DNA from: a virus
DNA length: 64,000 nucleotides
IMG/VR virus record: IMGVR_UViG_3300045988_166360
Coordinates: 3,753-67,752 of that record
Strand: one strand, 5' to 3'
The number at the start of each line of letters is the position of its first letter. Position 1 is the stretch's first letter. A program made the position numbers and the translations under genes. The notes under the pieces are model-generated. The model saw only the letters and a program-made list of their open reading frames with translations. It was not told the origin of the DNA and searched no databases. This document shows, one piece after another, positions 16,200-59,996 of this stretch.

Positions 16200-16390
16200 T
16201 TTTAATGATTTCTATTGTTTTATTTCCCCCGGATTCCGGGGAACAGGGTCATCATATCAGGGGCGGGGGCCTTGTCAACCCACGGTTTCCGCGGTATCCG
16301 TTGATTCCGCGGTATCCGTTGATTCTTAGGTAGTTGTGATTGTGTCATACAAGATTTTCCGGGTTCCGTGGGCACAGGGGATTCCGTGGC

Positions 16391-16444
16391 TTCCGGGGGT
16401 TCCGGGGGTTCCGGGGGTTCCGGGGGTTCCGGGGGTTCCGGGGG
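16391..16444. repeat. 9-bp tandem repeat ttccggggg x6 (non-coding)
   Basis: Read directly; adjacent to copy of GC-rich mini-element (16357-16399). Confidence 0.85.
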
Positions 16445-16529
16445 TCAACTTTTATACACCATACCTATACCCCTATGGGTATAAGAGTACAATATATAGG
16501 GCCCCCCCCCCTCAAACTGGTCAAATATT

Positions 16530-16629
16530 TGACTATTTCGAAATCGAAACAATTAAGAAAGGGTAACTGTTTCCTTTCTTAAATAGTTAAAGAACATTGA
16601 CTATTTCGAAATCGAAACAATTAAGAAAT
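16530..16629. repeat. Two copies of 32-bp element ttgactatttcgaaatcgaaacaattaagaaa (16530-16561, 16598-16629)
   Basis: Exact direct repeat separated by 36 bp; contains TTCGAA palindromes; candidate protein-binding sites. Confidence 0.8.
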
Positions 16630-17051
16630 CTTAACTAATCGGCTCAATTTTGCATTATATGTATTATGCGAAGTATGGAAGGGAAAAGCTTTAAGAATCA
16701 ACAGGTTACGCTAAACAGGGTGCCAATAGGAAACAAACTGGGAAAAGGGGCGGCTGAATGTTAGAGCACCCGCGGAACCCACTGTTCCCCATACACTTAG
16801 GAAGAAACGGGCACCAAGAAATCAACGGAATCAGGGAATCAAAAGGACATTATGGAGACCGTCCGGGTTAGAGTTACTCGAACCTGACTTCTGGGAAAAT
16901 CTGGAACTTTTTGAAAAATTTTTCAACCAAAAAAGACCAAATACCACCACGGTTTCCAGGGCTCCGGGGAAGCAAAGTGGCCATTGTAAAAGATTAACTC
17001 AAATTTTTTCGGGGAAGACACGGGGCTAAATACCCCTTCTGGGCACAGAGG

Positions 17052-18351: not shown

Positions 18352-18393
18352 CTGAGGGAGTCTATCCGAAAGGGTGAGGCTCCCTCAGTTTTT
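18352..18393 (+). terminator. Intrinsic terminator CTGAGGGAG..CTCCCTCAG + TTTTT
   Basis: Perfect 9-bp stem, 19-nt loop, U5 tail; in non-coding region. Confidence 0.55.
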
Positions 18394-18860
18394 GTAGTTA
18401 AAGAGGAAGCACATACACCAAACTCAAGCCCTAGCCCGAGAAGGCCCTTCCCTCATTGAAGCTAAACCAGTTATGCAATTTGTAGTTGAAAAAATAGTTT
18501 TGAAATAGTAGGCAAAAATTACGTCTAAACTACGCGTAAGTGACTGATTATTAAATGCGGGCCTTTATTTGTAGTAAATAGTAGTAGAGAAAAAAATTGT
18601 ATATATATATAATTTATAATATATAAAAAAAAAAAAAATAAAAAAAATATATTTACTGTATTACTATTTACTATTTAAAAAAAAAAGACAGTTAACCTGT
18701 TGAAAATCAACCTGTTATGAATAGTTTTACCAAAAACTATTTTTGAACCCCCGGAGTCCAAGGAACCCCCGGAATCCACTCTCCGACATCATGTAACATG
18801 TTCGAGATTAGTGGCTTACAAAAATAGTTGTGACCTCCTTTCTGCTTCAACTACAAAACG
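18390..18860. other. Candidate replication origin core: TTTGTAGTT(G/A)AA repeats (18390, 18479, 18567 direct; 18846 inverted) flanking ~100-bp AT-rich tract (18565-18690)
   Basis: Repeats and >85% AT tract read directly; located at strand-switch immediately upstream of primase-helicase module. Confidence 0.4.
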
Positions 18861-19021: not shown

Positions 19022-19705
19022 ATGACCGAAACATCTAATCTGGACCTGAGCCACTACCGACAATACCTGCATATAGACCCCCAATACCTTTGGGACGAAA
19101 AAGAGCAATGCTTTCAGACCCGCAGTATGAGAGCCCAGGAATCCACGGATTCCGTTGTGGCCTGCATTCTGAAAGTCTTTTGTGAATCCCCTCTCTATGT
19201 ATCTCTCGAAAGACTGCATCGGCTCTTCTGTCTGATAAAAGGAAGAGAAGCGGACCCCACGGAATCCGCGGCCCTCAAGGAGCTTTTTCTTATTGCTTTT
19301 TATCCTGTAAGTGCTGAGCTTCGTCTCCCGACTTATTGCAGTTTTCAATACGTGTGGAGCAAGGGCGGGTATGCAATGGCACATTATAGCGAACATCTCC
19401 GTTGGGAATTTAATAATGAATATGGCATCTACACCGACAAAGTTCTTCCTGTCAATAAGGTTCCTTTGTGCAATCTACTGGACATCAAACAGAAACGGTG
19501 CTATCCCATGCTTCTGGCCATCATCCATGAGCTGAACGGCAAATCCCTTGCCATACCCGAACTGCTCAGGAATCCTTATTTGTCGAAGTTCAGCAGGAAT
19601 ACCGTACTGAAACATGCCGAAGATGTATCAGCCCGGTATGGGCTTAAAACATCGTCAGGCCGCCCTGCGGTTTTGAATTCCGACTGCAAAATTTTCTATT
19701 ACTGA
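19022..19705 (+). CDS. Hypothetical protein (227 aa), first gene of plus-strand replication module
   Basis: ORF with ATG start; no motif recognised. Confidence 0.45.
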   Translation: MTETSNLDLSHYRQYLHIDPQYLWDEKEQCFQTRSMRAQESTDSVVACILKVFCESPLYVSLERLHRLFCLIKGREADPTESAALKELFLIAFYPVSAELRLPTYCSFQYVWSKGGYAMAHYSEHLRWEFNNEYGIYTDKVLPVNKVPLCNLLDIKQKRCYPMLLAIIHELNGKSLAIPELLRNPYLSKFSRNTVLKHAEDVSARYGLKTSSGRPAVLNSDCKIFYY

Positions 19706-19711
19706 TAAACC

Positions 19712-22576
19712 ATGACGACACAAAACAACAATACGCCGGAGGACGATTTGGAACTTACATTCACGTCACTCCGTCTTAGCCAGTTGCAGTTCAAAACAAA
19801 AGGCACGAAACTCGCCACAGCGGGAAGTTGCAACCATTCAATATCCATTCCATTGAGGGACGTGCTTTGTCTCTTTAAAGGGGAGAAGATTACCAACCCG
19901 GAACTCATCCGGTTCTCCTATCAGGTGAAAATGTTCCAGGCAATGCAGAATCTGGTAGATGAAGAATCTCTTTGTCTCCCGCCCCTGTATACCCGGATAT
20001 TAGCGCAATGGAAGAAGCTGGGCCTCACGCCGGGGGAACTAAAACCCTCGCTCCCTGCTGTTGTGCCCTCTGTTCAGTTCCTGGGCAAACCCGGTTTCTA
20101 TGACTTTTCCGCAGGTTCCTGTTACTACACTAACCGCAGGCTTGTCTCCGTTGACGGAACTTCCTGGCGGCATACAGGTGTCTTCGGCATTGACGTGGAC
20201 CTTAAGGAAAACCCGGAACATACTGCGGAGTCATTACTGGATGTGGCTCGCGCCAAACTCCCGGGCCTTGACGGCTTTCTGTTTGCCTATGTAAGTCCGA
20301 ACCGGGGGCTTAAGATTTTCTTCCAGGTCTCTCATCAGAATCTGCAACAGCTGAATCAGATGCCTCAGCTGGAAGGTGAAGAAGGAGAAGAGCTGGATGT
20401 AAAGCGTTTGGCCAATGAGCGTGCTTTCCTTCATAATGTCGTCTACTACAAATTGGCTGATTATGTAGCTAAGGAAACGGGGTTTGTTCTGGACATGGCC
20501 TGCAAGGACCCGGCACGGATGCAGTTTCTCTATCTGGGAACCTTTATCCCCGGAACCCAAGGAACCCCCGGATTCCATGTAAGCAACATTGCCGAAGTAA
20601 AGGAAGCATACCTGAGAGATGCGAAGAATCGTCCAGTTAATTCGGAACTCCCCAGCGTAGCTCCCGGTTCTCCTAAACCCAAAATTCTGGTGGATTTCAT
20701 TCGTTGGCTTAAAGTCAATGAGTACCATGATACGGCCCAGGGCCTTGAGCAAATGGACTATGTTAAGGGTGATGGGTGCCTCTACGGCGAATGCCCTCAA
20801 TGTCGTGGCGGGAGGTCTGAAGTCAGCACAAATCTTGACCTTAGATTTTATCCTCACCCACAGTATGCAAATCGTTCCTACTTCTATTGCTTCCATGCCA
20901 GTTGCCATGGTGCTAATCCCGATGTTGTGTCTGTCCAATGGCTCTTCAATCAGTACCTTGCGGATATTGAGGCTGAAGTGGAAAAGAATCTGAATGTAGA
21001 AGTCTGGTGTCAGGACCCTTTGCTGATGAAATGTTTCATGCAGGGGTTGAGCCCTGTCAACTCCAACGCCTCAATACCTGATGTCAGCTCTGCGAAACTG
21101 CGTCGGCTGGATTACCCTTATGTTAAACAGTCCAAGACAGGGAAGCTGATACCTCTTCTGACCGACAGGAATATTGGTCATCTTCTGCACTATGGACTTA
21201 ATATCAGGGTGTTCCGTCGCATGAACACCCAAGAGCTTCTCCTTTTGGATTTCAAGAACTGCAGGTGGTACGAAACCAACCCGGCTATTCTGTCCCAGAT
21301 TTCCGGGTTCTGGCAGGAGGTGGTGCCGGGACAGGCTATTCCGGCGCAACGCCTGATGGATGCGTTGCGTAATCTGGCGCAGAGCAACTACTATCACCCA
21401 TTGGCAACATTCGCCAGTTCGCGCCCCTGGGATGCTCAGGACCGTCTTCGCAATTTCCTTGACTTCTTTGTCATGGACCAGACTGTGGAAATGCCCGAAG
21501 GCTGGACTCCTGACTCCTATAGGGATGCAGTCCTTACCACCTGGCTCATCTATCTCTGGAAACGTGTCGCCATGCGTCTCGACCTAAACCCCACAGGCAC
21601 CGTGAATCAAGGGTTCCCCCAGAACTATGTACCTGTGTTTTCCGGGAAGCAGGGTGTAGGTAAGACCAAAGCTACCGAATGGCTCTTCAATGGGTTGTCC
21701 ATTGATAAAGCTCAGTCCATTGAAGGTTCAAACAGCGCAGACTCTACGGTTCAGATGTCCCGGCACTCTGTTATCGTACTCGACGAAATTGATGAGGAAG
21801 TATCTAATAAAGCCAAGCAGAGCAAGCTGAAACGGATTCTCACCGGAGAATCGGACAACTGCCGTATTGCTTATGGGTCTGCACCGTCAACCTATCACTA
21901 TTGCGCCAGTGTCATAGGGTCCACCAACCAAAGCCAGTTCCTGCGGGACAACTCCGGCTCCCGTCGTTATTATCCGCTTATTCTTGGTGAACGTCCGAAA
22001 CCAAAAGAACCTCTGCCCGAAGGTGTAGATGTTAACTGGGATGCCGTTAAGAAGCTGTTCGAAATGGATAACCAGCAACTCTGGGCCCAGATTAAGTACA
22101 TGGTGGATTCCGGGGAAGCTGATAAGTACAGCTGGTCGAAACTGGTTAAGGTTGGTGAATACGTAGCTTCGAATTACGCCAGTTGCCAGGGGGACGATAC
22201 GGACCTGGTGAAATATCTGGTGCCCGTGGCTCTTAAGGATACGGATGTGTCGGGGGGCCGTTTGTCCAAAAAGATTCCCGGAAATTTTACAACCATGCGA
22301 AATGTCCTTGAATACGTGCGAGTTACCTGGGGTAACGGGTCCCGGCAGGAAGGCTGGGATGATAAGAATTTTGAGCGCGACCTTGCTCAAGCGTATGGGC
22401 GGGATTCCCTGATGAAGCATAGTGTCCGGCGTGAGTGTGACCCAGGTCCGGTTCAACGTTATTTCTTCCTGCCTGTTGACCTGTGGATGAAGGAAGCCAG
22501 CAGGGAAACAAAGGAGCGAATCTATGCACAGTACCCCCATATTGAGAAATTGTCACAAACCTCGCTCGAAAGTTAA
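19712..22576 (+). CDS. Bifunctional primase-polymerase (PrimPol) / SF3 (D5-like) helicase
   Basis: N-terminal FGIDVD and LKIFFQ PrimPol-like motifs plus CPQC..C.H.SCH zinc finger; C-terminal Walker A GKQGVGKT, Walker B VIVLDEID, motif C GSTN. Confidence 0.75.
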   Translation: MTTQNNNTPEDDLELTFTSLRLSQLQFKTKGTKLATAGSCNHSISIPLRDVLCLFKGEKITNPELIRFSYQVKMFQAMQNLVDEESLCLPPLYTRILAQWKKLGLTPGELKPSLPAVVPSVQFLGKPGFYDFSAGSCYYTNRRLVSVDGTSWRHTGVFGIDVDLKENPEHTAESLLDVARAKLPGLDGFLFAYVSPNRGLKIFFQVSHQNLQQLNQMPQLEGEEGEELDVKRLANERAFLHNVVYYKLADYVAKETGFVLDMACKDPARMQFLYLGTFIPGTQGTPGFHVSNIAEVKEAYLRDAKNRPVNSELPSVAPGSPKPKILVDFIRWLKVNEYHDTAQGLEQMDYVKGDGCLYGECPQCRGGRSEVSTNLDLRFYPHPQYANRSYFYCFHASCHGANPDVVSVQWLFNQYLADIEAEVEKNLNVEVWCQDPLLMKCFMQGLSPVNSNASIPDVSSAKLRRLDYPYVKQSKTGKLIPLLTDRNIGHLLHYGLNIRVFRRMNTQELLLLDFKNCRWYETNPAILSQISGFWQEVVPGQAIPAQRLMDALRNLAQSNYYHPLATFASSRPWDAQDRLRNFLDFFVMDQTVEMPEGWTPDSYRDAVLTTWLIYLWKRVAMRLDLNPTGTVNQGFPQNYVPVFSGKQGVGKTKATEWLFNGLSIDKAQSIEGSNSADSTVQMSRHSVIVLDEIDEEVSNKAKQSKLKRILTGESDNCRIAYGSAPSTYHYCASVIGSTNQSQFLRDNSGSRRYYPLILGERPKPKEPLPEGVDVNWDAVKKLFEMDNQQLWAQIKYMVDSGEADKYSWSKLVKVGEYVASNYASCQGDDTDLVKYLVPVALKDTDVSGGRLSKKIPGNFTTMRNVLEYVRVTWGNGSRQEGWDDKNFERDLAQAYGRDSLMKHSVRRECDPGPVQRYFFLPVDLWMKEASRETKERIYAQYPHIEKLSQTSLES

Positions 22577-23555: not shown

Positions 23556-25459
23556 TGGAAAGTGCTACTGCTTTGTCTCTCCCGAAGGTGCCTGGCTATG
23601 ACATGGAGATTACGGAGGACCAGACGAAACTGGCGGGCCCTGTCCTTGCGATTGACTTTGAAACTTTTTATGAAGGGGAATATTCCCTTAAACGAATGGA
23701 CCCCCGGTCCTATTGCACCCACGAGAAGTTTGACGCATATGTCATGTCGGCCTACGATGGGAAGTATTGCTGGGTGGGGCATCCTAAAGAGTTTAACTGG
23801 GCAGAAACCACCAGAGATAAAATCATTGTTTCTTTCAACGCCAGCTTCGACTACGCCGTTTACCTGTTTGGACTGAAAGCCCCCGGAAGCCACGGAATCC
23901 CCTGTACCCCCGGATTCCGCACACCCTTCACTGCCTGGCTCTGTTCACGCGCGGCCTCCAATTATCTGTCCATATATGGCTCACTGTCGGAGATAGTGCT
24001 TCGTTTATGGAACATTGCGGTCAGCAAGGAAGTCCGGGCCAGGGCAGAGGGCATCGACTTCCGTACCCTGGATGCGATTCCCGAAGATATGAAGGAATAC
24101 GTGGCGGGCGACTCCTACTACTGTTACGCTGTCTGGGACAAGTTTGAGCGTTTCTGGCCGGAGCATGAACGCGAGTGTTGGCTGAACACCTGCATCATGG
24201 GATGGAGGGGCGTGCCGACCAGCCGCGCGGCTGTTGAGGAAGGACTGGAACTGCTGAAGGAGGCAAGGGAACAGTATAAGGAAGCCATCCCCCTGGAAAA
24301 GAAACTTTCCCTTCTCCAACTCCGCAAAGCCTGCCAGGATTTAAATATCCCCCCTCCTGAAACAACCAGCAAGGCCAGTGAGAAATTTACGGACTGGCTT
24401 GAAACTTACGGAAAGCTTATTCCCTGGGTAAGCCTTTTGGGCAAGTACCGGAGCGTCAACCGTCTTATTTCTCTGACGGAGCGCATGCTTTCCCGTGTCT
24501 ATACCGACCATGAAGGGGTGGACCGGATTCCTTACACGCTTACCTACTGTGGAGCCAGTACGGGACGCTGGACAGCCGGAGGTGACAAATTAAACCTGCA
24601 ACAGCTTAACCGGGATAAGGTTGGGGAGTTTAGCCAGCGGGAACTTATTCAGGCACCTCCCGGGTATAAGCTGGTGGTCTGTGACTGGGCCGGGATTGAA
24701 GCCCGCCTCACTGCCTGGCTTTGCGGGCAGGAAAAAATTCTTGAAACCCTCCGCGCAGGTGAAAAGGACATCTATGCCGCTAACGCGAAAGGCTGGGGCC
24801 TTATCCCTGATTCGGTGACAGATTTCAAGGCATACTGCAAGGAGACCCCCGGGCAGGAAAATCTTCGCCAGCATGTGAAAGCCGGGGTGCTTGCCTGTGG
24901 TTTCAGTGCGGGATGGTCTGCGATTCAACGCACCAATCCGGGCATGGACCGAAACCAGTGCCAGGCCATTGTCGATATGTACCGGAGCCGGAGCCCGGAG
25001 GTGGTCGCGTGGTGGCGGGAACTTGACGCACTGGCGGCCCGCGGCTACCGGACTCCTTCCCACAGTTTTGCCCTCACCCTGCCCTCCGGGCGAAAGCTGT
25101 ATTATCGTAACTGTTACAAGAAGCTTATCCAGCCCAAAGACGGGAGGCGGCCCTACTTCGCAACCTGTGTCAATTTCGGGAAAAAGACTTCCATTGTAAA
25201 TACTAACCTGTTGAGCAACAACAATATCCAGGCTATTGCCCGCGACCTGATGGTTCGCGCTTTCAACAGATTCTGCAAGGAATTGCCCGGGGCCAGCCCG
25301 TGTCTTCTTGTCCATGACGAAGCTGTGGTTATGGTTCCCGCGGACAGCGCGGAGGAATACGCACAGCGGATTGAGGAAATCATGGAGGACACTCCCCAAT
25401 GGGCGAACACCCTGCCTCTCCTTGCCGAACCGGAAATCATGGAGAAGTATAGGAAATGA
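23555..25459 (+). CDS. Family A DNA polymerase with 3'-5' exonuclease domain
   Basis: Exo I AIDFETF; exo YVAGDSYY; motif A CDWAGIEARL (cf DYSQIELR); motif B RQHVKAGVLACGFSAG; motif C LVHDEAVV. Confidence 0.85.
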   Translation: MESATALSLPKVPGYDMEITEDQTKLAGPVLAIDFETFYEGEYSLKRMDPRSYCTHEKFDAYVMSAYDGKYCWVGHPKEFNWAETTRDKIIVSFNASFDYAVYLFGLKAPGSHGIPCTPGFRTPFTAWLCSRAASNYLSIYGSLSEIVLRLWNIAVSKEVRARAEGIDFRTLDAIPEDMKEYVAGDSYYCYAVWDKFERFWPEHERECWLNTCIMGWRGVPTSRAAVEEGLELLKEAREQYKEAIPLEKKLSLLQLRKACQDLNIPPPETTSKASEKFTDWLETYGKLIPWVSLLGKYRSVNRLISLTERMLSRVYTDHEGVDRIPYTLTYCGASTGRWTAGGDKLNLQQLNRDKVGEFSQRELIQAPPGYKLVVCDWAGIEARLTAWLCGQEKILETLRAGEKDIYAANAKGWGLIPDSVTDFKAYCKETPGQENLRQHVKAGVLACGFSAGWSAIQRTNPGMDRNQCQAIVDMYRSRSPEVVAWWRELDALAARGYRTPSHSFALTLPSGRKLYYRNCYKKLIQPKDGRRPYFATCVNFGKKTSIVNTNLLSNNNIQAIARDLMVRAFNRFCKELPGASPCLLVHDEAVVMVPADSAEEYAQRIEEIMEDTPQWANTLPLLAEPEIMEKYRK

Positions 25460-26820
25460 GCTGTCCTCTTAAACCATACCCGCCCCAGGTGGAGTGCATT
25501 GATGCCATGGTCAGGGCATTACGTGCCCGCGGCTTTGTTATCAACAAGTCCTGCACCGGGACGGGGAAGACTCTTGTCACTATCGAAACGGCCCGCATCC
25601 TGGGCCTCCGTCCTCTGGTTGTCTGTCCTGCCATTGTTGTCACCCAGTGGAAACGTGCCATGGAGGCGCAGGGTGTAGTTGATGCGGGCATCTATTCCTG
25701 GGAGAAAATCCGCAGGGGTAACACACCGTTTTACTCCAAGCCTCCACGGATTCCCCGTAGCCGTGTAGCCCTTGGCAGATGGACCCTTCCCGACAATTCG
25801 GTCCTTGTCCTGGATGAAAGCCACAAGGCCAAGACCTACCGGAGCCAGAGCAACATCATGGCATTGTCTGCCGCGGTCCAGAAGATTCCCTCCATCCTGC
25901 TTTCGGCCACTCCGTTCATTACCCCGTTGGACATGAGCGTCCCGGCAACCTATGCCGGATGGATTAGGGACCCCCGGATTGGTTTCTGGATGTGGGCTGG
26001 ACAGCAAGGATGTACCGAGTCTTTCTGGGGTGGATTGGAATTTAAGTTATCCACTAGAACTCAATCCCTTATGGAGAACTTGAAACGTAAGCTGTTCGAC
26101 GCGGGCGTTATGACGGAGATTGACAGGGAAAAGCTTGACACATTCTTTCCGAAAAACCGTATTGAATATCTGTCCGTAGACGTGGAGGTAGGGGGCATGA
26201 AAAGGATTAAGGCATTGCAGAAAGCCCTGGACAAGCTGGATAATGCCTGGGCCGAAAGCATTGAGCGAGCCAGTGAGAACGGTGTTGAACTTCCTGCGAT
26301 AGTGGAGTTGCTTCGTCTTCGCCAGCAGTCGGAGCTCGCCAAGCTTCCCACAATGGCAGAAAAGGCGGTGGAGCTGTTGGAAAGCGGATATAGTGTCGCC
26401 ATCTTTGTTTCGTTCCTTGACAGCATACAGACCCTTTCGGAGCTTATCTGTCAGAAAGCGGAGAAAGAAATGTTGTTTTCCGAAATCAGCGGAAGACTGA
26501 CCGGAACGGAGAGGCAGGAGGAAGTTGATAAGTTTCAATCAAATAGAACCCGTGTCGCTCTGGTTCAGATTAGCGCGGGCGGGACCGGAGTATCCCTCCA
26601 TGACACGGATGGCAATTTCCCCCGGGCCGCTCTTATCTCTCCTGACTACTCTATTCAAAATCTGTTGCAGGCCCAGGGGCGTATTGCCCGGTTGGGGGCC
26701 CGGTCCTCCACCATTCAATATATCGTGACTGCCGCGGATACCGTGGAAGAAAAAATCATTAAAGCACTCAACACTAAGGAAATTTGTTTTAACTCCCTTA
26801 CACTCAATGACAGCGAATAA
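25456..26820 (+). CDS. SF2 (DEAH/SNF2-like) DNA helicase
   Basis: Walker A CTGTGKT, motif II VLDESHKAK, motif III LLSATP, motif VI QAQGRIARLG; ATGA overlap with polymerase. Confidence 0.75.
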   Translation: MSCPLKPYPPQVECIDAMVRALRARGFVINKSCTGTGKTLVTIETARILGLRPLVVCPAIVVTQWKRAMEAQGVVDAGIYSWEKIRRGNTPFYSKPPRIPRSRVALGRWTLPDNSVLVLDESHKAKTYRSQSNIMALSAAVQKIPSILLSATPFITPLDMSVPATYAGWIRDPRIGFWMWAGQQGCTESFWGGLEFKLSTRTQSLMENLKRKLFDAGVMTEIDREKLDTFFPKNRIEYLSVDVEVGGMKRIKALQKALDKLDNAWAESIERASENGVELPAIVELLRLRQQSELAKLPTMAEKAVELLESGYSVAIFVSFLDSIQTLSELICQKAEKEMLFSEISGRLTGTERQEEVDKFQSNRTRVALVQISAGGTGVSLHDTDGNFPRAALISPDYSIQNLLQAQGRIARLGARSSTIQYIVTAADTVEEKIIKALNTKEICFNSLTLNDSE

Positions 26821-28042
26821 TAAAGTACCAGCGGATAATTCCGCGGACACTCACAGTAAATACAGCCCGAGTTCGATTGCCATGCTCGCAACCTGTCCGG
26901 GATATATTCCCCGCCCTATGACACAGGATGAAGAAGAGGATGAATTTTCCCCCTCTGCCGTGGGCACCCGAGTCCACGGAGCCCTGGAAACCCAGAACCC
27001 GGATATGCTTTTAACCCGGCATGAGCGTTCCCTTTATAACGCGGCCAACAATATGCTGGGCATTTTGCGGGAAATGTTTACCAAAGAGGTGGGAACTGCG
27101 GAGTTCGAAGCACTGCCCGAACACAAGTTCCCCGGTATCCGTTTTAACCCGGATGACCCGGAACAGACGGGGACTGCCGACGTTTTATTCCGACATGGAA
27201 ATACCTCTATGATTGTGGACTACAAGATGGGCATTGTGCCCGTGTCCAACCCCGAGGTTAATAGTCAGTTTATTTATTATGGGTTGTTGGAATTTGCAGA
27301 ACGCCCTGAATGTGAAAGGATTATACTTGCAGTAATTCAACCGAGCCAGCAGGATGCGCTTAAGACCGCCGCCTTCTACCGGACGAAGGAATCACCGACA
27401 TTTTCTTCCGACATGCCCACGGTATCCATGGATGCCGTGGAAGCCGTGGAATCCGTGGCTTCCGTGATTATGCGCCGCTGTAGGGATGCGGATAATCCGT
27501 ATGCCTATTCTTCGTCGCCTCATGTCTGTCCCTACTGTGACCGACTGGCGACTTGTAAGAAGATTACCAGCATGGCCAGGAACTTCTCCCTTAAAGTATT
27601 GAAGGATAAGGAGTTAGCGGAAGGCATGATTGATAGTGTCGGGTCTGCCATGGATAACCCGGAAACCCTGGGTTCCCTTCTTTCCTTTGCAAGCATTATC
27701 AGCGAGGCGAATAAGGTGCATAAGGATTATGCCAAAACCCTGTTCTCCTGTGGGGTGGATGTCCCCGGCTGGAAGTACGCGAGCCGGGGAAGCACCGTTA
27801 AGGTGGACAATGATTCCTTCCGTGCCTACGTGGAACAATTTTTATCTCCGGAGGATATTCTGGACAACATATCCAGGCTCCCAGTCATGAAACTCCTGGA
27901 CCTTCTGTTGGAGAAGTCCATGGAATCCGGGGTTTCCGGGAAGGATAAGAAGGCCGCTAAGGAATTACTGTTGAAGGAATTACAGGACCTGGGCATTGTA
28001 CGTGAGGTGAAAGGCGCAATGGCTCTGTTAAAAATGAAATGA
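26807..28042 (+). CDS. PD-(D/E)xK nuclease, Cas4/RecB-like with Cys cluster
   Basis: D..(IVDYKMG) D-x-K catalytic-like motif, N-terminal CPGY and C-terminal CPYCDRLATCKK cysteines typical of Cas4-like Fe-S nucleases; contains 9-bp array 27439-27471. Confidence 0.55.
   Translation: MTANNKVPADNSADTHSKYSPSSIAMLATCPGYIPRPMTQDEEEDEFSPSAVGTRVHGALETQNPDMLLTRHERSLYNAANNMLGILREMFTKEVGTAEFEALPEHKFPGIRFNPDDPEQTGTADVLFRHGNTSMIVDYKMGIVPVSNPEVNSQFIYYGLLEFAERPECERIILAVIQPSQQDALKTAAFYRTKESPTFSSDMPTVSMDAVEAVESVASVIMRRCRDADNPYAYSSSPHVCPYCDRLATCKKITSMARNFSLKVLKDKELAEGMIDSVGSAMDNPETLGSLLSFASIISEANKVHKDYAKTLFSCGVDVPGWKYASRGSTVKVDNDSFRAYVEQFLSPEDILDNISRLPVMKLLDLLLEKSMESGVSGKDKKAAKELLLKELQDLGIVREVKGAMALLKMK
27439..27471. 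repeat. Imperfect 9-bp tandem repeat gccgtggaa/tccgtggct (encodes AVEAVESVASV)
   Basis: Read directly; CCGTGG core. Confidence 0.7.
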
Positions 28043-47194: not shown

Positions 47195-47383
47195 ATGCGT
47201 AAACTTCTTCAGAATAGCTTCGGCTTATCCTGGGAAGAACTTGCGTGCATGACAGATTCCGAAGTCGAAGAAACCCTGGCTTCCCTGGGATACGTTCTTG
47301 TCAAAAACTTTTCGGCAGGAAATGATACCCTGTATGTAGTTCCCAAGAGTATGCTTGAAAACGTTTACGCTCTGACTCGATGA
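47195..47383 (+). CDS. Small hypothetical protein (62 aa)
   Basis: In-frame ATG within track ORF 47024..47383, 5 nt after previous stop. Confidence 0.3.
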   Translation: MRKLLQNSFGLSWEELACMTDSEVEETLASLGYVLVKNFSAGNDTLYVVPKSMLENVYALTR

Positions 47384-47474: not shown

Positions 47475-47954
47475 ATGAAAAATCAAAGCCAACTCATCAA
47501 ACACCCCGGACTCAAGTATCCCCGGAAGCCACGGAACAGCACACCCCCTGTACAGAAAATCCCACACGGATACCTTTCAACACAGGAAATCGCGGATGCC
47601 GTGGGAAGAACTCCTACATGTATTCTTACTACACTGGAACGCCGTAAAGTGCCTAAAGTACGTTTCGGAAGGGTTGTGTACTGGGACGGAGAACTTGCCC
47701 GAGAGTATATCAGGGAAGTCGATGCTGACGTGTATGACCATATGCCTAACGGATATATTGACATAGAAAGCGCGTTGGAACTTACCGGATTCAAAAGTGC
47801 CGCTTATTTATCCACCCTGTTCAAGAGAGGGAAAGTGCGCCGTATCCGGTACCGGGATGACATGGGAGCCGGAAGAAAGACGAGGTTCGCGTACAATGTT
47901 CTTGACCTGGAAACTCTTTTGAGTTTAAATTCTGACCCGGAGGACCATGACTAA
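47475..47954 (+). CDS. DNA-binding protein with two excisionase/MerR-type HTH motifs
   Basis: LSTQEIADAVGRTPTCILTTLERRKVPKVRFGRVVYW and IESALELTGFKSAAYLSTLFKRGKVRRIRY resemble AlpA/Xis HTH_17; N-terminus carries mini-element copy 47519-47555. Confidence 0.5.
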   Translation: MKNQSQLIKHPGLKYPRKPRNSTPPVQKIPHGYLSTQEIADAVGRTPTCILTTLERRKVPKVRFGRVVYWDGELAREYIREVDADVYDHMPNGYIDIESALELTGFKSAAYLSTLFKRGKVRRIRYRDDMGAGRKTRFAYNVLDLETLLSLNSDPEDHD

Positions 47955-48303
47955 GAGTATCTTCACTACCCAAAGAACGCTTCATCCGCGGATGGGGGCA
48001 CAGGAAAGGCTGTTAGGGATTTTAACAAACCTGGAACTGTTCGGTGTTGATTTTTCTTTGTCTTCTCTCAGGATTCTTTTGGCCCTTCACGGAAGCGGGG
48101 GTACCGCGAAACTAACGGCAAAACAGTTATCCCTTCAGCTAAGCCTGTCCACCTCGAACATTTCTTATCACCTCAACAAGCTTCTGGATTATGGCCATGT
48201 GGAGAAGGTAACGGACAGCGACCCCCAGCAATACCAGCTCACGGCACGGGGGAGGAACCTCTGCCGTGACATCTTCAAACCCCAAGAATACATCAACAAA
48301 TGA
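47947..48303 (+). CDS. Winged-helix (MarR/ArsR-like) transcriptional regulator
   Basis: LTAKQLSLQLSLSTSNISYHLNKLLDYGHVEKV recognition-helix/wing pattern. Confidence 0.5.
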   Translation: MTKSIFTTQRTLHPRMGAQERLLGILTNLELFGVDFSLSSLRILLALHGSGGTAKLTAKQLSLQLSLSTSNISYHLNKLLDYGHVEKVTDSDPQQYQLTARGRNLCRDIFKPQEYINK

Positions 48304-48723: not shown

Positions 48724-49677
48724 ATGACCGACAACGAGGTTCAATATTCCGAGTTACCCTCTGCCCCGGACCTCTTTAATCATCCGGTACCCACGGTTCC
48801 CGTGGGTACCGAATTGTTTAATGACACGCCTCCGTTCGATTCTCTTCCTGACCCCATTGCCCCGGTTTATGGGGATAGTGACGTGGGAGTACAGGTTTCG
48901 CGTCCTTACAATGACGACCCGTTGTTTCGGAATTACCCGGAAAACATGTTCGCCATTGTTTATGACCCTGAGTCTATTAACGGCCCCAGTGTAAAATATG
49001 TGGCCGGAGTTATTATTGAGGGCAACAATGTTATCCAAATCGGAGGGACTCCGGGGTCTCTGCAAAACGTAATGAGCAACGAGCATGCTCCTTTGGATGA
49101 CAATATTACCTGGTATTTGAATGTACAGAGTGACAGGTCTGCTTCTACCGTCAGCAGTACAAAGGACCCGCTGGCAGACTTTTGGGTTCCTCTGGCCAAG
49201 ATAACCAAAGGATGCAACGGTTATATTCAACAGTTGCACCGGGGGGCTGTCTTTCTCTCTACGTCCGCTTATGGTTTTGAAGTTCAGTTGGAGTTCAATG
49301 AACAAGGGACCCGGACGGGGATTAAAGTGCGTCCCGGTATCGTCATGTTGAATGGAAAGTCCCTGGGGAAATTCCCTGAAACCTTACAGGATGAGCCCTG
49401 GTATTACTCTGCCTTTACTCAGGATGGTCCGGTATATTTAAGACTTACCCTAGACGACCATAGTATGGTAACGGGCTCCGCTATTGAATTTGAGTTAGCG
49501 ACCCCTAAAATATACAATCTAGTCATAGGTGCCGAGCAAAAAGAGGACCCTCCATTTACCTACTCTTTTTTATTAGCAGATATTAAAGAAAAACAAGTCA
49601 CTCAGTATCTGCTGGGTACGGTCCAGTTACCTGTAGGTGGTGGTACTTTCTTCCCATATGGTGCTATCGATGAATAA
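48724..49677 (+). CDS. Hypothetical (possibly virion/baseplate) protein (317 aa)
   Basis: ORF; beta-rich; no motif recognised. Confidence 0.45.
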   Translation: MTDNEVQYSELPSAPDLFNHPVPTVPVGTELFNDTPPFDSLPDPIAPVYGDSDVGVQVSRPYNDDPLFRNYPENMFAIVYDPESINGPSVKYVAGVIIEGNNVIQIGGTPGSLQNVMSNEHAPLDDNITWYLNVQSDRSASTVSSTKDPLADFWVPLAKITKGCNGYIQQLHRGAVFLSTSAYGFEVQLEFNEQGTRTGIKVRPGIVMLNGKSLGKFPETLQDEPWYYSAFTQDGPVYLRLTLDDHSMVTGSAIEFELATPKIYNLVIGAEQKEDPPFTYSFLLADIKEKQVTQYLLGTVQLPVGGGTFFPYGAIDE

Positions 49678-51613: not shown

Positions 51614-52336
51614 ATGGCCAGTAATAATAACCCCATGTCCGAAACACAACCTAACCATGAGTTTGATGATTTTGTTTTCATCATTTTTGCGTACAACTCT
51701 ACCCTGGACTGGCCGGAGCGTGAGCCTCTGCTTGTTCACTATTCTGTCAATTATCTGCTCAACCACGGAATCCCCGGAACCCGTATTACCGTTCTGGCCA
51801 ATGACCTGTCGGTATGTTCCTGGGCAAACCAGCAGGGAATGAAGTTTATCCAGCTTAAAGCCACAAACCGTAAAACGATTACGGAAGCTATATCCTCCAT
51901 AATGGGGGAGAATCCGTGGAAGAATATCATATGTCTCAACACCGTATTTCCTGTGCGTGAAGCGGACCTCCTGTCTTTGATGTGCAGTCAAATCAGGACG
52001 GAAAAACAACGGCTCTTTCTCACTGCTCACATGGGAGCCCACCACCAGAAGGAAGATAACACAGTAACTTGGGATACTGTATTGAACGGAAGTATCTTGG
52101 GCTTTCGTCACGACTCTGATATTAAATCCATCTTCCATCCCGATACATTGTATCCTGTGCATCACAATGCTGAATGCGGGAATTATAACATCTGCTACAG
52201 ATACCAGTATATGAAGGAACCCCTGGAATCCGCGGTTGCCGTGGGTTACAAAATGTCCGCATGGACTGCGCCCTGCCCATCAGAATATCCCCGCAGGGTG
52301 GAAATAAAGCTGGACAAGGACACAGCTACCCACTAA
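51614..52336 (+). CDS. Second nucleotidyltransferase-like protein (240 aa)
   Basis: NIICLNTVFPVREADLL resembles ILLQPTSPIRPPSLL of the upstream cytidylyltransferase; contains partial mini-element 51765-51785. Confidence 0.4.
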   Translation: MASNNNPMSETQPNHEFDDFVFIIFAYNSTLDWPEREPLLVHYSVNYLLNHGIPGTRITVLANDLSVCSWANQQGMKFIQLKATNRKTITEAISSIMGENPWKNIICLNTVFPVREADLLSLMCSQIRTEKQRLFLTAHMGAHHQKEDNTVTWDTVLNGSILGFRHDSDIKSIFHPDTLYPVHHNAECGNYNICYRYQYMKEPLESAVAVGYKMSAWTAPCPSEYPRRVEIKLDKDTATH

Positions 52337-52807: not shown

Positions 52808-53188
52808 ATGAAATTAGACCTCAACAGAATACTGAAACTTTATCCGCTCCTTAAAATCCTCCACTACCAGACAAAGGAAGGCTTTCATCATGAAAAATAT
52901 GATGAAGCATTCGATGACCTGGGGGAACTTGCGGACAAATTTATTGAAACCTACATGGGGCTGAATGGACGGGACTGGATTGCAGGTTCCCTCCCCATGC
53001 CCAAACTTGTAGAACCCAACACCCGGAACTGCGTTGCAAGATACCGCATGGACATCATTGACGACCTTATCCCCTATCTCTACCAGATGGCTCGAGGACA
53101 TAAGGCCCTGAACAAATTGGCAGAAGATTTTGACGAAGCCGCCCACGGAATCCTTGGTCTCCTGGAAAACTTCAGCAATGGCCAATAA
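52808..53188 (+). CDS. Hypothetical protein (126 aa; internal ATG of track ORF 52727..53188)
   Basis: ATG 6 nt after previous stop. Confidence 0.35.
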   Translation: MKLDLNRILKLYPLLKILHYQTKEGFHHEKYDEAFDDLGELADKFIETYMGLNGRDWIAGSLPMPKLVEPNTRNCVARYRMDIIDDLIPYLYQMARGHKALNKLAEDFDEAAHGILGLLENFSNGQ

Positions 53189-53193: not shown

Positions 53194-53685
53194 ATGCCCT
53201 GTGTGTATAATAAAGCAGAGTTTTACATGGCCAATGACGGCCCGGAAAGCAACTCTGAAATCATATCCCAGGTTCTGCCACGCATGGACGGGATACTTTC
53301 CCGAGCCCGCTCCATGACTTGGGGCATGATTAGCTATTCCCTGTCCAGGACAAATAATCCTTTCGGCATTGCGCTCGAACATATGCGGGTAGGCTTCGCC
53401 GCACGAACCGTATCCCTGCCGGATGTTACGGGTGTGTGTGATGTGTCCCATTGGATAATTATGGAAACGGTCCCCCTTTCTTTCGAGGACTTCCGTTGTA
53501 TTTTCAGGATTCTGGAACCCACGGTATCCCCGGATGAACTGCACGATTATCTCCTGCATAATCAATGGTACACTCCTTCCAAAGAAATCCAACTGGACAA
53601 CGACATGATTACCCTGTTCCACTGGGAACTGGGCTACCCTGAAAACGAACGAATCAACCCACTGAAAAATGACACAGAACAATAA
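53194..53685 (+). CDS. Hypothetical protein (163 aa)
   Basis: ORF only. Confidence 0.4.
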   Translation: MPCVYNKAEFYMANDGPESNSEIISQVLPRMDGILSRARSMTWGMISYSLSRTNNPFGIALEHMRVGFAARTVSLPDVTGVCDVSHWIIMETVPLSFEDFRCIFRILEPTVSPDELHDYLLHNQWYTPSKEIQLDNDMITLFHWELGYPENERINPLKNDTEQ

Positions 53686-54409
53686 AATCAAAAAGATTCA
53701 ACAGCTGGTAGGCGTAACTGCTGACGGCATTATAGGCCCTAAAACCATTGACGCAATTCTTAAGCGGTTGACTTCGGATTCCATGGGTACCGGGGAATCC
53801 GTGGATGCTTATGAAATCCGTAACCGGATGGCCGCTAAAATCCTGAACATGGAAGACTATAAAATTACGGGGCCAGAATCCCTGCGGGTTACGCGCCTCC
53901 CCTCCGGTGATGGAGGCGGCACCCGGGAAATCGCAGGTATCTGCGACGGGATTGAACCGGAAGTGTTTAACCGGATTAAATCTCTGCTGGACAAGGGACT
54001 GCGGGAAGAAGCATGGGAGGACTGCCTCAGCTATGTACTTGAGAATACGGCCACCATTGCAAGCTATTTTCCGAATTATGGTTTTGGCTACGAATTCATG
54101 GTGCGCGACCTGGCCTTTAACATGGGCAATGCCGGAGCTATCAAAGTTATCCAGGGCATGGCCAACCGTGAGGGCACTGACGAGATTGCAGTGGATGGGA
54201 AGTGGGGCATTAAAACGCAGACAGCTTTGCTGGGGCTGACCTCAACCCTGCCCGAAGACTACGTGGTTAATGCTCTGGACAAAGCGGCCCGAACCCGTTA
54301 CCAAAGTATTGTGGATGCCAATCCCGTCAAGGAAAAATTCCTCAAGGGGTGGCTCAACAGATGCGACGACCGCCTGGCTTTTGCTAATACTCTTGTGTCA
54401 AGCAAATAA
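53669..54409 (+). CDS. Putative endolysin / peptidoglycan-binding protein
   Basis: Two PG-binding-like repeats (VTADGIIGPKTIDAI; VDGKWGIKTQTALL); catalytic domain not identified. Confidence 0.4.
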   Translation: MTQNNKIKKIQQLVGVTADGIIGPKTIDAILKRLTSDSMGTGESVDAYEIRNRMAAKILNMEDYKITGPESLRVTRLPSGDGGGTREIAGICDGIEPEVFNRIKSLLDKGLREEAWEDCLSYVLENTATIASYFPNYGFGYEFMVRDLAFNMGNAGAIKVIQGMANREGTDEIAVDGKWGIKTQTALLGLTSTLPEDYVVNALDKAARTRYQSIVDANPVKEKFLKGWLNRCDDRLAFANTLVSSK

Positions 54410-58163: not shown

Positions 58164-58167
58164 TCTC

Positions 58168-58905
58168 ATGGCGTTCATTACTAAATCCTATTTGACGTAT
58201 CGAAATGTATGCGACGAATTGTGTATGCTCATTACCAATACGCCGCCCTCCAAAACCAATGTTGACTTCCGCAGGATTCTAAAAGAAGCCCAGAACCTCC
58301 TGCTTAACGAAGCCACGGTATCCCCGGATTCCATGGCAACTCTTGACTTCGAAGGGATTGAACGGGACGGAACCATATCCTTGCCGGAAGAATATGACAG
58401 TATCGTTGAGGCATGGACTCCGGGGGGCCAGAGGTACAACATTGTTGACCGGGCCATGTTCGAATCCAACACCTGGTTCCGTAGCGAGTACCCCCGCAGG
58501 CCGCACGGTTCCCCTCCCCTCATGGTGGACATGGGGCTAAATGACAAAAACCTCCGCACCTATGCCGTACTGTCTGGTAGCAATGGCATTAACGACCAGA
58601 ACAACACCATGACCGTGACCGCGCGTTGCGCCCTCCGCGGGCTGTCCCTGAATGTTTATGACGACAGCGCATGGGAAGATGAAGAGGTCCGCATTTATCC
58701 GGGATGTCTTCCCGCCCTCAAGGCCATGATGCTGTCCGTAGTCTACAATGAACAGGGCAATACCCAGATGGGCACGGACAGTTACGGACTGGCAGTCAAA
58801 TACCTGAACGACCATCTTCGCAAATACCGTCAGGGCACCTATCAGGCACCCAACATTATTCAAGTGGGTGGCCTGATGCAGAGCCCCGGACTTAATCTCA
58901 TGTAA
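58168..58905 (+). CDS. Hypothetical virion-module protein (245 aa)
   Basis: ORF only. Confidence 0.45.
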   Translation: MAFITKSYLTYRNVCDELCMLITNTPPSKTNVDFRRILKEAQNLLLNEATVSPDSMATLDFEGIERDGTISLPEEYDSIVEAWTPGGQRYNIVDRAMFESNTWFRSEYPRRPHGSPPLMVDMGLNDKNLRTYAVLSGSNGINDQNNTMTVTARCALRGLSLNVYDDSAWEDEEVRIYPGCLPALKAMMLSVVYNEQGNTQMGTDSYGLAVKYLNDHLRKYRQGTYQAPNIIQVGGLMQSPGLNLM

Positions 58906-58910
58906 CCCTT

Positions 58911-59996
58911 ATGGCAACTCAATCTACAGCTACAAGTAATGAAGGGAAGAACCCCGTAACCAAGTCTCCGCGGCAGAAGATTACTGAAGAAGTTCTGCCC
59001 AAGGTAAACCCCGACGTGCCGCTTCGCCCCAGCTCCAACAACGACCCGAACAAACCTGTCGATGCTAAGGCATTGAACGAAGTGGCCGCGGCCAACAGCA
59101 ACCACGGAATCCAGAGACCTCCGGGAACCCCGGAAAGGCCCAGCGCGGCCTACTGGGCCAGCAAGGGAATCACGGAACCCACGGTTCCAGGTGCCGCGGA
59201 CCCGAACAGCAGAGCCTATGCGGAAGCCCAGCGGGCCAGTTACCAAAAACTCATAGCCCAGGGGCCGACCGCAGAGGACAGGCTTCTCATGAGGGGCGTG
59301 GACCAGAATGTAAGCAGAGGGCAGATGCCTGTAATCAGAGGACCTGAACCCGCCGTACCCACGGGACCCACGGTACCCACGGGACCCGGGGGTCGAACTT
59401 CCGCGTCTTCGAATCTGACCTTCGGGGACTTCAGTGCGAAAATGAAGAATGACCTCCCCCCGGAACAGTATAAACTTTTCCAGTCCCTGTCTCCCGCTGT
59501 ACAAACAAACCTATACAACAGGTTTAAAGCGCAACAGATTAGACAGATGGGAACCACGGGAACCACGGGAACCACGGGAACCACGGGAACCACGGGAACC
59601 ACGGGAACCGTGGGGGCCTTGCCTGCCGGGGGTTCTCCCATACCTACGGCAGAAACAACCCCGCTGGGACGGGATGAAAAAATGCTGAATGTTCTGCGGG
59701 ACTCTACAGCAGACCCGCAAGCCAGGGCTCAAGCCAAAGCCTATCTGACGGTCAAGACCATGTATGCCCAGAAAGGAAAATACGCAAACGAAATTAAAGC
59801 CCTGGAACGAGGTGCCCGCGCTTACCGTAAACAACTGGACAATATGTTCAAAAATACTTTGAACCGAAGGGACCCGCGGTACCAACAACAGTATGACCAC
59901 CTAAGATTGCTGAGGAAGAACAACCCGCAGGCGAAACTTATCATGTACACGGAACTGTTGAAGAGGCCGGAGTTTGCTTCTCTTAGATTCAAATAA
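58911..59996 (+). CDS. Low-complexity Pro/Gly/Thr-rich protein with (GTT)x6 repeat (361 aa)
   Basis: Disordered composition; arrays 59352-59386 and 59549-59611 in frame; mini-element copy 59101-59135. Confidence 0.45.
   Translation: MATQSTATSNEGKNPVTKSPRQKITEEVLPKVNPDVPLRPSSNNDPNKPVDAKALNEVAAANSNHGIQRPPGTPERPSAAYWASKGITEPTVPGAADPNSRAYAEAQRASYQKLIAQGPTAEDRLLMRGVDQNVSRGQMPVIRGPEPAVPTGPTVPTGPGGRTSASSNLTFGDFSAKMKNDLPPEQYKLFQSLSPAVQTNLYNRFKAQQIRQMGTTGTTGTTGTTGTTGTTGTVGALPAGGSPIPTAETTPLGRDEKMLNVLRDSTADPQARAQAKAYLTVKTMYAQKGKYANEIKALERGARAYRKQLDNMFKNTLNRRDPRYQQQYDHLRLLRKNNPQAKLIMYTELLKRPEFASLRFK
59549..59611. repeat. 9-bp tandem repeat gggaaccac x6-7 (encodes GTTGTT...)
   Basis: Read directly; CCACGG core. 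Confidence 0.85.

Follow-up and report, generated by a model that had tools for sequence, protein, structure and literature searches.

A genome-wide 9-bp lattice of CCNNGG units, maintained by selection in one clade of phages

In the replication origin (ori) of phage lambda, protein-binding iterons of 19 bp lie in frame within gene O, at one locus, and dimers of MetJ, a ribbon-helix-helix (RHH) protein, bind metboxes of 8 bp. RHH dimers of omega/ParB of pSM19035 bind 7-bp heptads in contiguous arrays, and their function depends on this contiguity (PMC9499535). The cluster A mycobacteriophages L5, Bxb1 and their relatives carry more than 20 short protein-binding sites, the stoperators, genome-wide and beyond the promoters; these sites, 13 bp long and asymmetric, each take up a monomer; they occupy short intergenic spaces and follow the direction of transcription in their orientation (PMC9283540). 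In-frame palindromic DNA of another kind is found in the Rickettsia palindromic elements (RPEs), discrete mobile insertions of ~150 bp that resemble miniature inverted-repeat transposable elements and add a conserved peptide (PMC10969869). Here, we describe a family of short arrays in a 64,000-nucleotide stretch of phage DNA (positions 3,753 to 67,752 of the IMG/VR record IMGVR_UViG_3300045988_166360; hereafter the window), in which CCNNGG recurs with a strict period of 9 bp. This arrangement is referred to as the lattice. Literature searches on 9-bp phage repeats and on CCNNGG returned nothing relevant.

The lattice is similar to stoperators in that many copies of one site family are spread across a phage genome and an effect on transcription initiation and elongation is proposed. 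It differs from them in that its sites are dyad-symmetric and phased by 9 bp into arrays of 2–8 units, that 37 of 42 arrays lie within open reading frames (ORFs) and that its reader is a candidate only. With the omega and MetJ arrays it shares short units without gaps, at least two units per array, variable unit number and orientation, and the presence of more than one array in a replicon. Its unit is 9 bp long, however, the candidate proteins are of the helix-turn-helix (HTH) type, and the known arrays lie at promoters or centromeres and not in dozens of genes. As at lambda ori, the repeats can stand inside coding sequence, and one array (18749–18772) lies beside an A+T-rich tract upstream of replication genes, but there are ~40 loci with the 9-bp lattice and not one. 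By this comparison stoperators would be the closest functional analogue, and the lattice is best classed among the dispersed protein-binding site families of phage genomes.

A DNA-level lattice with a strict 9-bp period

The window contains 416 CCNNGG sites, which form 80 pairs at a distance of 9 bp, 49 at 18 bp, 34 at 27 bp and 20 at 36 bp, with 0–7 pairs at each of the remaining distances from 2 to 39 bp. No enrichment was seen at 8 or 10 bp, and the phasing is thus strictly 9 bp. Dinucleotide-preserving shuffles gave 1.4 pairs at 9 bp (maximum 7). When three-unit lattices with no more than one mismatch were searched, 68 matching positions at 30 loci were found, against 0.15 expected in the shuffles. 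Strict chaining yielded 42 arrays of 2–8 units, where about 1 was expected; 27 of them consist of two units, 6 of three and 9 of four to eight, and the longest is among the 5 that are non-coding (Table 1). Tandem Repeats Finder detected only the homogeneous arrays, at 6496–6531, 16361–16445, 59549–59609, 63337–63376 and 63919–64000.

The lattice can be written as (CCRYGG-NWN)n or, in the other register, as GGAWTCC-RY heptamers. A unit has the form CC-(A/G)(C/T)-GG-A-W-T; AC, GT, AT, GC, CC or GG mostly fill its middle pair, and the central base of the spacer is A or T at 111 of 122 positions. Units appear as CCACGG or CCGTGG with AAT or ATT spacers, and the lattice reads the same on both strands, a dyad axis falling every 4.5 bp; since units recur every 9 bp, each array is dyad-symmetric. 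Two-unit arrays are bordered by half-units, GG at −4/−3 and CC at +19/+20, so that the minimal site reads GG-NWN-CCRYGG-AWT-CCRYGG-NWN-CC, i.e. a 15-bp palindrome-like site with flanking half-units.

Permuting the codons within genes left 1.7 pairs at 9 bp. A synonymous-codon shuffle, which keeps the proteins unchanged, left 9.9 (maximum 17) against 76 observed in ORFs, the ORF set including a few spurious ORFs from the non-coding region at 16.2–19 kb. The coding arrays occupy all three frames, with a strong preference for xCC-NNG-Gxx (30/37; Gly frame 5/37, Pro frame 2/37; chi-square p = 5e-9) that holds for genes of both strands and is explained by encodability, because this frame constrains the protein least. 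The encoded peptides differ (PTVSMDAVE, ATESTA, DPGVHG, PRKPR and others), and no conserved element peptide exists. The loss of the signal on synonymous shuffling, its presence in three frames and its presence in non-coding DNA bear out the original prediction in placing it at the level of DNA rather than of protein homology. The arrays do have features of the collagen-like and other 9-bp tandem repeats of phage tail fibres, namely the 9-bp unit, in-frame variation in copy number and a (GTT)n stretch at 59554–59613. Those repeats are elsewhere single and homogeneous, one per locus, whereas the lattice is heterogeneous, genome-wide, mostly in a non-Gly frame and also non-coding. Gly stands at every third residue only in the (TTG)n array at 59554 and in part of that at 59359. 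As few arrays encode Gly-X-Y, collagen-like repeats do not explain the pattern and account only for the (GTT)n array.

The same signal had been read in the original prediction as a dispersed, GC-rich mini-element of ~30 bp in near-identical, related and partial copies. The sequences it quoted were found at their coordinates and are far from random: a 25-mer, CCCCGGAAGCCACGGAATCCCCTGT, is shared by 23881–23905(+) in the polymerase gene and 16374–16398(−) in non-coding DNA, with 0 matches in 100 dinucleotide-preserving shuffles, and the exact match extends to the 26 nucleotides (nt) claimed. The segments 18749–18778 and 20548–20577 are 90% identical over 30 nt, again as described. Among the partial copies, those at 47520, 51763, 53519 and 59102 each contain two lattice units, whereas 25741–25770 is merely a degenerate fragment. 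What these places share, though, is only the 9-bp lattice, which runs through the whole window, and this is why the listed copies look alike; they are segments of a lattice and not copies of an element, and no ends, terminal repeats or target duplications are found. Only the polymerase/intergenic pair is a true copy, because it alone shares an off-lattice unit (CCCCTGTRCCC) as well.

Selection on lattice bases and origin by substitution

Substitution at four-fold-degenerate sites of 2–4-unit arrays was compared between the window as reference and seven related contigs. In three relatives ~80% identical to the window (contigs 115270, 139056 and 130272), 0/53, 2/48 and 0/46 lattice C/G sites had changed, against 46%, 44% and 43% of background four-fold sites, and in contigs 134760 and 135811 the figures were 9/83 and 11/81 against 32% and 27% (Fisher p for lattice versus background, 8e-15 to 5e-3). 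The non-lattice N positions of the same arrays had changed at 26–42% of four-fold sites, i.e. at the background rate, and isolated CCNNGG sites at 23–37%, which is near background. The expectation for neutral variable-number tandem repeats, namely no constraint other than the recent shared descent of the units, therefore fails, lattice four-fold sites being changed at 0–14% against 27–46%. Furthermore, the arrays at 48786–48810, 51763–51777, 52221–52244 and 63422–63454 form islands of 93–100% identity in flanks of 75–80% and are unchanged, or nearly so, in the 80% sub-clade; the palindrome at 48786–48810 is 100% identical in seven relatives (flanks 76–99%), and in L329/L330 too. With CC and GG fixed and N free, a recognition motif fits and gene conversion does not, because conversion would carry N along. 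Thus, the lattice bases are under position-specific purifying selection, which fits a functional motif instead of the RPE-like mobile insertion proposed before.

The view that the sequences were inserted in frame holds for the polymerase. Its 10-residue segment is lineage-specific, as the alignment suggested in the original prediction shows: the clade polymerase carries 10 residues more at the peptide APGSHGIPCTPGFRTP than a 45%-identical homologue and four homologues at 28–31%. The peptide is kept without insertions or deletions in all 31 relatives and is therefore not recent. In the other genes, alignment gave the opposite result. Nearly all short arrays encode peptides that match homologous residues of syntenic, lattice-free sister proteins without gaps, even in the resolvase, whose conserved CDPG motif is overlaid by an array. 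For example, EATVSPDSM is encoded in the window with the codons GCC ACG GTA TCC CCG GAT TCC ATG, and EATVAPDSI in the sister phage with GCA ACC GTA GCC CCT GAC TCA ATC, which contain no lattice. Sites were also gained within individual sub-clades through synonymous or conservative changes, in the helicase from TCC GGT ACG to GCG GAT ACC and in the resolvase by L>M plus D>G. Most short arrays thus arose in place by substitution and codon choice and not by insertion. The likeness to RPEs is limited to palindromic DNA that occurs both outside genes and, in frame, within unrelated ones, with one true insertion in the polymerase; in contrast to RPEs, the lattice has no element boundaries, and most of its copies replace residues by substitution rather than add them.

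The suspicion of a mobile or templated sequence was right for particular events, although no discrete element is involved. Units of 9 bp are gained and lost in the long arrays: those at 59359, 59554, 61181 and 63338 differ by 9 or 18 bp among relatives, and the primase gene of the 81% sub-clade contains a (GGAATCCGT)n array, encoding TDS repeats, of 2 to 7 copies. The long arrays resemble minisatellites in this respect, being polymorphic in copy number among close relatives. AC and GT are exchanged between orthologous units, and in L001, L020 and L028 the polymerase segment is swapped for other units of the array type. The inverted 26-nt polymerase/intergenic match with its off-lattice unit is found in this genome only (0/31 relatives); as the polymerase peptide is ancestral, it represents a single templated copying event, with the polymerase as source and the intergenic array as target. 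Both slippage and ectopic copying thus take place, as had been suspected. Taken together, the feature is real, strongly non-random and under selection, and it was labelled wrongly as a mobile mini-element; the earlier observation is in part confirmed and its interpretation in part supported.

Clade restriction, candidate readers and genomic surroundings

INPHARED contains no close cultured relative, the best polymerase match being 27% identical. IMG/VR holds 31 contigs with polymerases 80–100% identical, and further contigs span the structural half; all these relatives display the 9-bp periodicity. A search of IMG/VR with the polymerase alignment for more distant relatives returned the same 31 loci. 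Runs of five CCRYGG-NWN units occur in 42 stretches of all IMG/VR, of which about a quarter come from this clade, and each of the loci outside it is one homogeneous tandem repeat. The generic five-unit CCNNGG pattern is common in IMG/VR, elsewhere mostly with CCWWGG or CCNGGG units, which are taken to be collagen-like repeats. A five-unit CCRYGG-NWN scan of genome contigs for the host gave, among the matches listed, isolated tandem repeats in Streptomyces, Myxococcota and other taxa, besides a Bacillus locus dense in repeats, none of them related to the phage.

Sister phages with the gene order of the window, similar G+C content and ~45% protein identity are lattice-free. Pairs at 9 bp numbered 1 in L201–L203 (polymerase 45% identical; 56–65 CCNNGG sites), 2 in L207 (tail protein 43%), 1 in L208 (tail protein 52%, partial) and 0 in L331 (tail protein 42%). 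Lattice-positive genomes had 24 in the polymerase-region span and 38 in the tail-region span of the window, 20 in L205 (tail protein 74%), 19 in L206 (68%) and 31 in L329/L330 (80%). The low counts of 0–2 pairs in the syntenic sisters mark the lattice as an innovation of a single clade.

Where regions could be compared, all lattice-positive lineages examined share three genes that are lacking at the syntenic position in lattice-free ones; two of them, adjacent in the late region and lacking in three lattice-free lineages, encode candidate readers (Table 1). The two halves of the 159-amino-acid (aa) protein can be read as excisionase-like HTH segments. This protein is 55–59% identical among lattice-positive lineages, and no homologue was found outside the clade, its 10 clusters all consisting of clade members. 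No RHH protein was matched among roughly 65 scanned proteins, many small ORFs having no match of any kind. The co-occurrence of HTH genes and lattice offers a lead rather than a test.

The non-coding stretch at 16200–19020 extends for 2.8 kb without a convincing ORF between divergent gene blocks. A sister phage is also gene-free for 3 kb at the equivalent place, and its region contains no arrays. In the window, a strong sigma-70-like site at 16251–16278 faces the leftward gene block and has arrays on both sides. Arrays with different unit sequences occupy the position of 16357–16445 in relatives of both sub-clades, and in the relative L013 an array lies upstream of the primase gene. The array 16357–16445 adjoins a conserved TGTCATACAA box, and that at 18749–18772 abuts the A+T-rich tract upstream of the primase module, a location that cannot account for the ~40 other arrays.

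The same stretch has features of its own. CTGTCAAGAAAAATCGACACGCGGC occurs three times (two exact copies, one with one mismatch) at 17052, 17355 and 17622, spaced by 303 and 267 bp; a strong terminator-like hairpin lies at 17584–17615 and a run of 11 C at 16501–16511. The stretch may contain non-coding RNAs, a replication origin or both. At 18590–18740 an extremely A+T-rich tract of TA repeats and A runs is followed by the direct repeat AACCTGTT, present twice, just upstream of the replication module; the tract looks like the DNA-unwinding element of an origin. Within the leftward block, a 97-nt intergenic repeat (11990–12086 and 13890–13986; 73% identical) holds TTGTCAAATTATTTTTT...TTGTATGACAAAA, and its TGTCATACAA box is the one that reappears in opposite orientation beside the 16357–16445 array and is conserved in relatives. 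This box may be a phage promoter or operator. A tandem duplication of ~870 bp was noted (14587–14898 and 15456–15770). The paralogous genes 14029–14580(−) and 14907–15455(−) have upstream regions that are 98% identical over 244 nt; beside these lies a G+C-rich hairpin with a central segment that is reverse-complemented between the copies (GGGCCGCCGAAACGGGCGGCCCC versus GGGCCGCCCGTTTCGGCGGCCCC). A perfect sigma-70 consensus, TTGACA-16-TATAAT, was found at 46551–46578, in the middle of the late region and upstream of a cassette of small genes, the two HTH genes among them. Canonical sigma-70 promoters are therefore probably used by the host, even though the primase has a BT4734-like domain.

Differences from close relatives were also recorded. 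Contig 165473 (L021) is 97.6% identical from window position 22574 on, whereas its primase module (1–3903, against 18671–22573 of the window) is unrelated at the DNA level; the junction is at the end of the primase gene, and the contig starts inside an array. It diverges from the window at 25974–26174 and 27374–27574 with 39 and 24 differences per 200 bp, and in the latter patch it matches the more distant relative L001. Both patches look like short gene-conversion tracts between co-circulating phages, and one of the two abuts an array. Arrays as recombination junctions were rejected, the change of identity across arrays being barely above random (p = 0.05). An HNH/NUMOD4 endonuclease gene that directly follows the polymerase in the sister clade is absent here.

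In some phages, thymidylate-synthase and nucleotide-kinase genes accompany base hypermodification, and their combination with a cytidylyltransferase occurs in phages with modified bases. At 3267–3767(−), 4289–4978(−) and 50438–51043(+), this phage has genes for a nucleotide kinase, a thymidylate-synthase-like protein and a cytidylyltransferase, and its DNA may be modified.

Table 1. Lattice arrays, promoter-like site and clade-specific genes, with positions in the window.
Position	Feature	Location	Remarks
5894..5908	2-unit array	ORF 5814-6380(-)	frame xCC-NNG-Gxx
6023..6037	2-unit array	ORF 5814-6380(-)	
6498..6530	4-unit perfect tandem array (TTCCTTGGA)	ORF 6352-6942(-)	encodes SKE repeats
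8009..8023	2-unit array	ORF 7586-8155(-)	frame 0
12562..12576	2-unit array	ORF 12098-12676(-)	
16227..16241	palindrome CCCCGGATTCCGGGG	non-coding	immediately past -10 box of leftward promoter-like site
16278-16251 (-)	sigma-70-like promoter site TTGACA-16-TATGAT		11/12 matches, TG extension; consensus match only
16280..16325	array	non-coding	strict units 16280-16294, degenerate to 16325; adjoins -35 box upstream
16357..16445	longest non-coding array	non-coding	16374-16399 is inverted 26-nt copy of polymerase 23880-23905, then GGGTTCCGG repeats
16947..16961	2-unit array	non-coding	
18749..18772	3-unit array	non-coding	right edge of A+T-rich tract 18590-18740, upstream of replication genes
19134..19148	2-unit array	ORF 19022-19705(+)	
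19257..19271	2-unit array	ORF 19022-19705(+)	
20548..20571	3-unit array	PrimPol/VapE-like helicase gene	Gly frame (IPGTQGTPG)
23881..23913	array (APGSHGIPCTPG)	family A polymerase, exonuclease domain	within clade-specific 10-aa insertion
26732..26746	2-unit array	helicase C-terminus	arose by substitutions in this sub-clade
27417..27458	5-unit heterogeneous array (PTVSMDAVEAVESVA)	DUF2800/PD-(D/E)XK nuclease gene	
27648..27671	gapped 2-unit array	nuclease gene	18-bp spacing
27918..27932	2-unit array	nuclease gene	lineage-specific
29071..29085	2-unit array	PHROG-annotated Holliday junction resolvase gene	over conserved CDPG motif; Gly frame
29535..29549	2-unit array	resolvase C-terminus	made by L>M and D>G changes
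35876..35890	2-unit array	ORF 34363-36642(+)	
36864..36914	6-unit heterogeneous array	end of ORF 36593-36955(+)	
38030..38044	2-unit array	ORF 36964-38172(+)	
40028..40042	2-unit array	ORF 40009-40539(+)	19 nt into ORF
41729..41743	2-unit array	tail gene 41602-43380(+)	same in 4 relatives
41867..41881	2-unit array, core of near-palindrome GGATTCCGCGGCTACCGTGGAATCC	tail gene 41602-43380(+)	same in 4 relatives
42170..42184	2-unit array	tail gene 41602-43380(+)	
47274..47288	2-unit array	ORF 47024-47383(+)	CCCTGG units
47475..47954 (+)	159-aa protein, candidate reader 1		weak match to phrog_66; clade-specific presence/absence
47520-47534	2-unit array	near 5' end of 159-aa protein gene	
47947..48303 (+)	118-aa MarR/ArsR-type winged-helix protein, candidate reader 2		clade-specific presence/absence
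48786..48810	perfect palindrome GGTACCCACGG-TTC-CCGTGGGTACC	ORF 48724-49677	2 units at 48791-48805; ~65 nt into ORF
51763..51777	2-unit array		Gly frame; near-invariant in 7 relatives, flanks 79-96%
52221..52244	3-unit array		near-invariant among relatives
52347-52802	third clade-specific gene		no family match
53143..53157	2-unit array	ORF 52727-53188(+)	
53519..53533	2-unit array	ORF 53194-53685(+)	
53781..53804	3-unit array	ORF 53669-54409(+)	
58313..58336	3-unit array		encodes ATVSPDSMA; sister phage: nearly equal peptide, other codons, no lattice
59359..59391	4-unit array (PTGPTVPTGPGG)		9-bp variation among relatives
59554..59613	7-unit tandem array GGGAACCAC		TTG repeats; 9-bp variation
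60878..60892	2-unit array	long ORF 60109-63999+	
61181..61204	3-unit array		one 9-bp unit fewer in relatives
63338..63379	5-unit tandem array CCCACGGCA		PTA repeats; length varies by 9 and 18 bp among relatives
63422..63454	4-unit heterogeneous array		97-100% identity in 7 relatives, flanks 75-99%
63926..64000	tandem array ACGGATACC, at least 8 units		TTD repeats; continues past window end

Possible functions of the lattice

The explanation we favour, and to which we give about an even chance, is that the arrays are phased binding sites for a two-fold-symmetric phage DNA-binding protein that exerts a stoperator-like control of transcription. Two units would be occupied by one dimer, and longer arrays would carry a short cooperative protein filament. 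The sites were written into existing coding sequence mainly through xCC-NNG-Gxx triplets, where small or acidic residues are tolerated, and further arrays border the early leftward promoter-like site and the A+T-rich origin-like tract. Array length then changes by replication slippage in in-frame steps of 9 bp, with occasional ectopic copying between arrays. The data show the lattice, its DNA-level nature, its maintenance by selection, its creation through substitution and its restriction to one clade; a protein as the reader, its identity with one of the two clade-specific HTH proteins at 47475–48303 and an effect on transcription are what we infer. Its role would be genome-wide transcription control, with an operator at the early promoter and roadblocks within genes, and this part is held with little assurance. 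A bolder form of the idea is possible though doubtful: an undescribed genome-wide phage control code, in which an operator lattice overlaid by codon choice has arisen together with a dedicated, clade-specific HTH reader that polymerises on 2–8 units and thereby silences or times expression across the genome, or else orders the DNA physically.

Several observations weigh against binding by one of the HTH proteins in transcription control. The sense strand favours CCACGG over CCGTGG, which could reflect an effect at the level of RNA or amino acids. Arrays show no significant closeness to gene starts (43% have a start no more than 150 nt away, compared with 34% for random placement; p = 0.25) and no general association with sigma-70-like (promoter-like) sites. 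The HTH genes and the lattice co-occur in one phylogenetic contrast, which takes in only about one-third to one-half of each sister genome, and at least the gene at 52347–52802 follows the same pattern of presence and absence. The MarR-like protein is just 32–34% identical among lineages that share the same lattice, and the AlphaFold model of the 159-aa protein is too poor for use (mean predicted local distance difference test score, pLDDT, 47.5). In addition, the relatives in the selection test amount to about two independent lineages, compared in BLAST-based alignments.

Selection, symmetry and clade restriction would also fit if the lattice were the target of a DNA-acting enzyme (base-modifying, methylating or nicking) or of a packaging or condensation protein, and were kept for protection or packaging. 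As palindromes, CCRYGG and CCNNGG resemble the recognition sites of type II enzymes, and the phage encodes the thymidylate-synthase-like protein, nucleotide kinase and late-region cytidylyltransferase described above. An enzyme site does not need strict 9-bp phasing, however, isolated CCNNGG sites are not conserved, no clade-specific methyltransferase or nuclease was found in the annotated parts, and L207, a lattice-free sister, also carries a homologue of the thymidylate-synthase gene; such a target appears unlikely. Somewhat less probable still is a functionless, self-propagating 9-bp minisatellite that spreads by slippage and by ectopic, microhomology-driven conversion in either orientation, the lattice being self-complementary, and so homogenises its arrays, only harmless in-frame copies surviving in genes. 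It would account for the perfect tandem arrays, the 9- and 18-bp steps among relatives, the 2 to 7 copies in the primase, the inverted copy from polymerase to intergenic DNA in this genome only, the AC/GT exchange, the replaced polymerase segment in L001, L020 and L028, and the scarcity of arrays in mid-gene (10/37 in the central 50%; p = 0.008). Conversion should homogenise the N positions too, but these diverge at the background synonymous rate while CC and GG are nearly invariant. Moreover, most short arrays came from point substitutions, even over the CDPG motif of the resolvase, some are identical across lineages whose flanks are 75–80% identical, and arrays are only marginally associated with mosaic breakpoints (p = 0.05).

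Two further explanations place the function in the gene products. A signal in RNA, whether a periodic site for an RNA-binding protein, a structure for stability or translation, or pairing with an antisense transcript from the 16.3-kb intergenic array, is improbable in our estimate. The concentration of 30 of 37 coding arrays in one frame (p = 5e-9), the preference of the sense strand for CCACGG and A-rich spacers, strong hairpins such as 48786–48810 (−24 kcal/mol) and the 41867 array (−19 kcal/mol), and the complementarity of the intergenic array to polymerase and primase segments speak for it. The frame bias is nevertheless explained by encodability, arrays occur upstream of the promoter-like site and in all frames, and the free N positions mean that stems are not maintained. 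RNA hairpins as a general principle were rejected, since the sense RNA is on average less structured than the antisense (mean −11.2 versus −13.0 kcal/mol; z below −2 in 13/42 arrays), and so was antisense pairing of the intergenic array with polymerase mRNA, the 26-nt match being absent from all 31 relatives. Known RNA genes do not account for the signal either, as no Rfam family matched and no tRNA was detected. A protein-level repeat, in which collagen-like Gly-X-Y or flexible tripeptide linkers are encoded and codon bias produces the likeness in DNA, is hardly credible and already contradicted. The (GTT)n array at 59554 and the Gly-frame segments in polymerase, primase and resolvase agree with it, as do most other IMG/VR matches to five-unit CCNNGG, whose units are taken as collagen-like. 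The synonymous shuffle removes the signal all the same (9.9 versus 76 pairs), the Gly frame is used in 5 of 37 coding arrays, five arrays including the longest are non-coding, and almost the same peptide is written in lattice-free codons in a sister phage.

Motifs overlaid on genes in this manner have consequences for how such genomes are read. They skew codon usage and synonymous rates, so that the synonymous substitution rate (dS) is far from neutral at lattice sites, and they may pass for mobile elements, collagen-like repeats or tracts of recombination. The arrays also break assemblies, as in the near-identical phage whose contig starts within one. The system makes a clean study case, with syntenic lattice-positive and lattice-free sisters, constrained bases at single-nucleotide resolution and two candidate readers. 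If the lattice is a protein-binding code, it would show a phage installing dozens of regulatory sites in essential genes, one of them over a conserved resolvase motif, while leaving the proteins unchanged.

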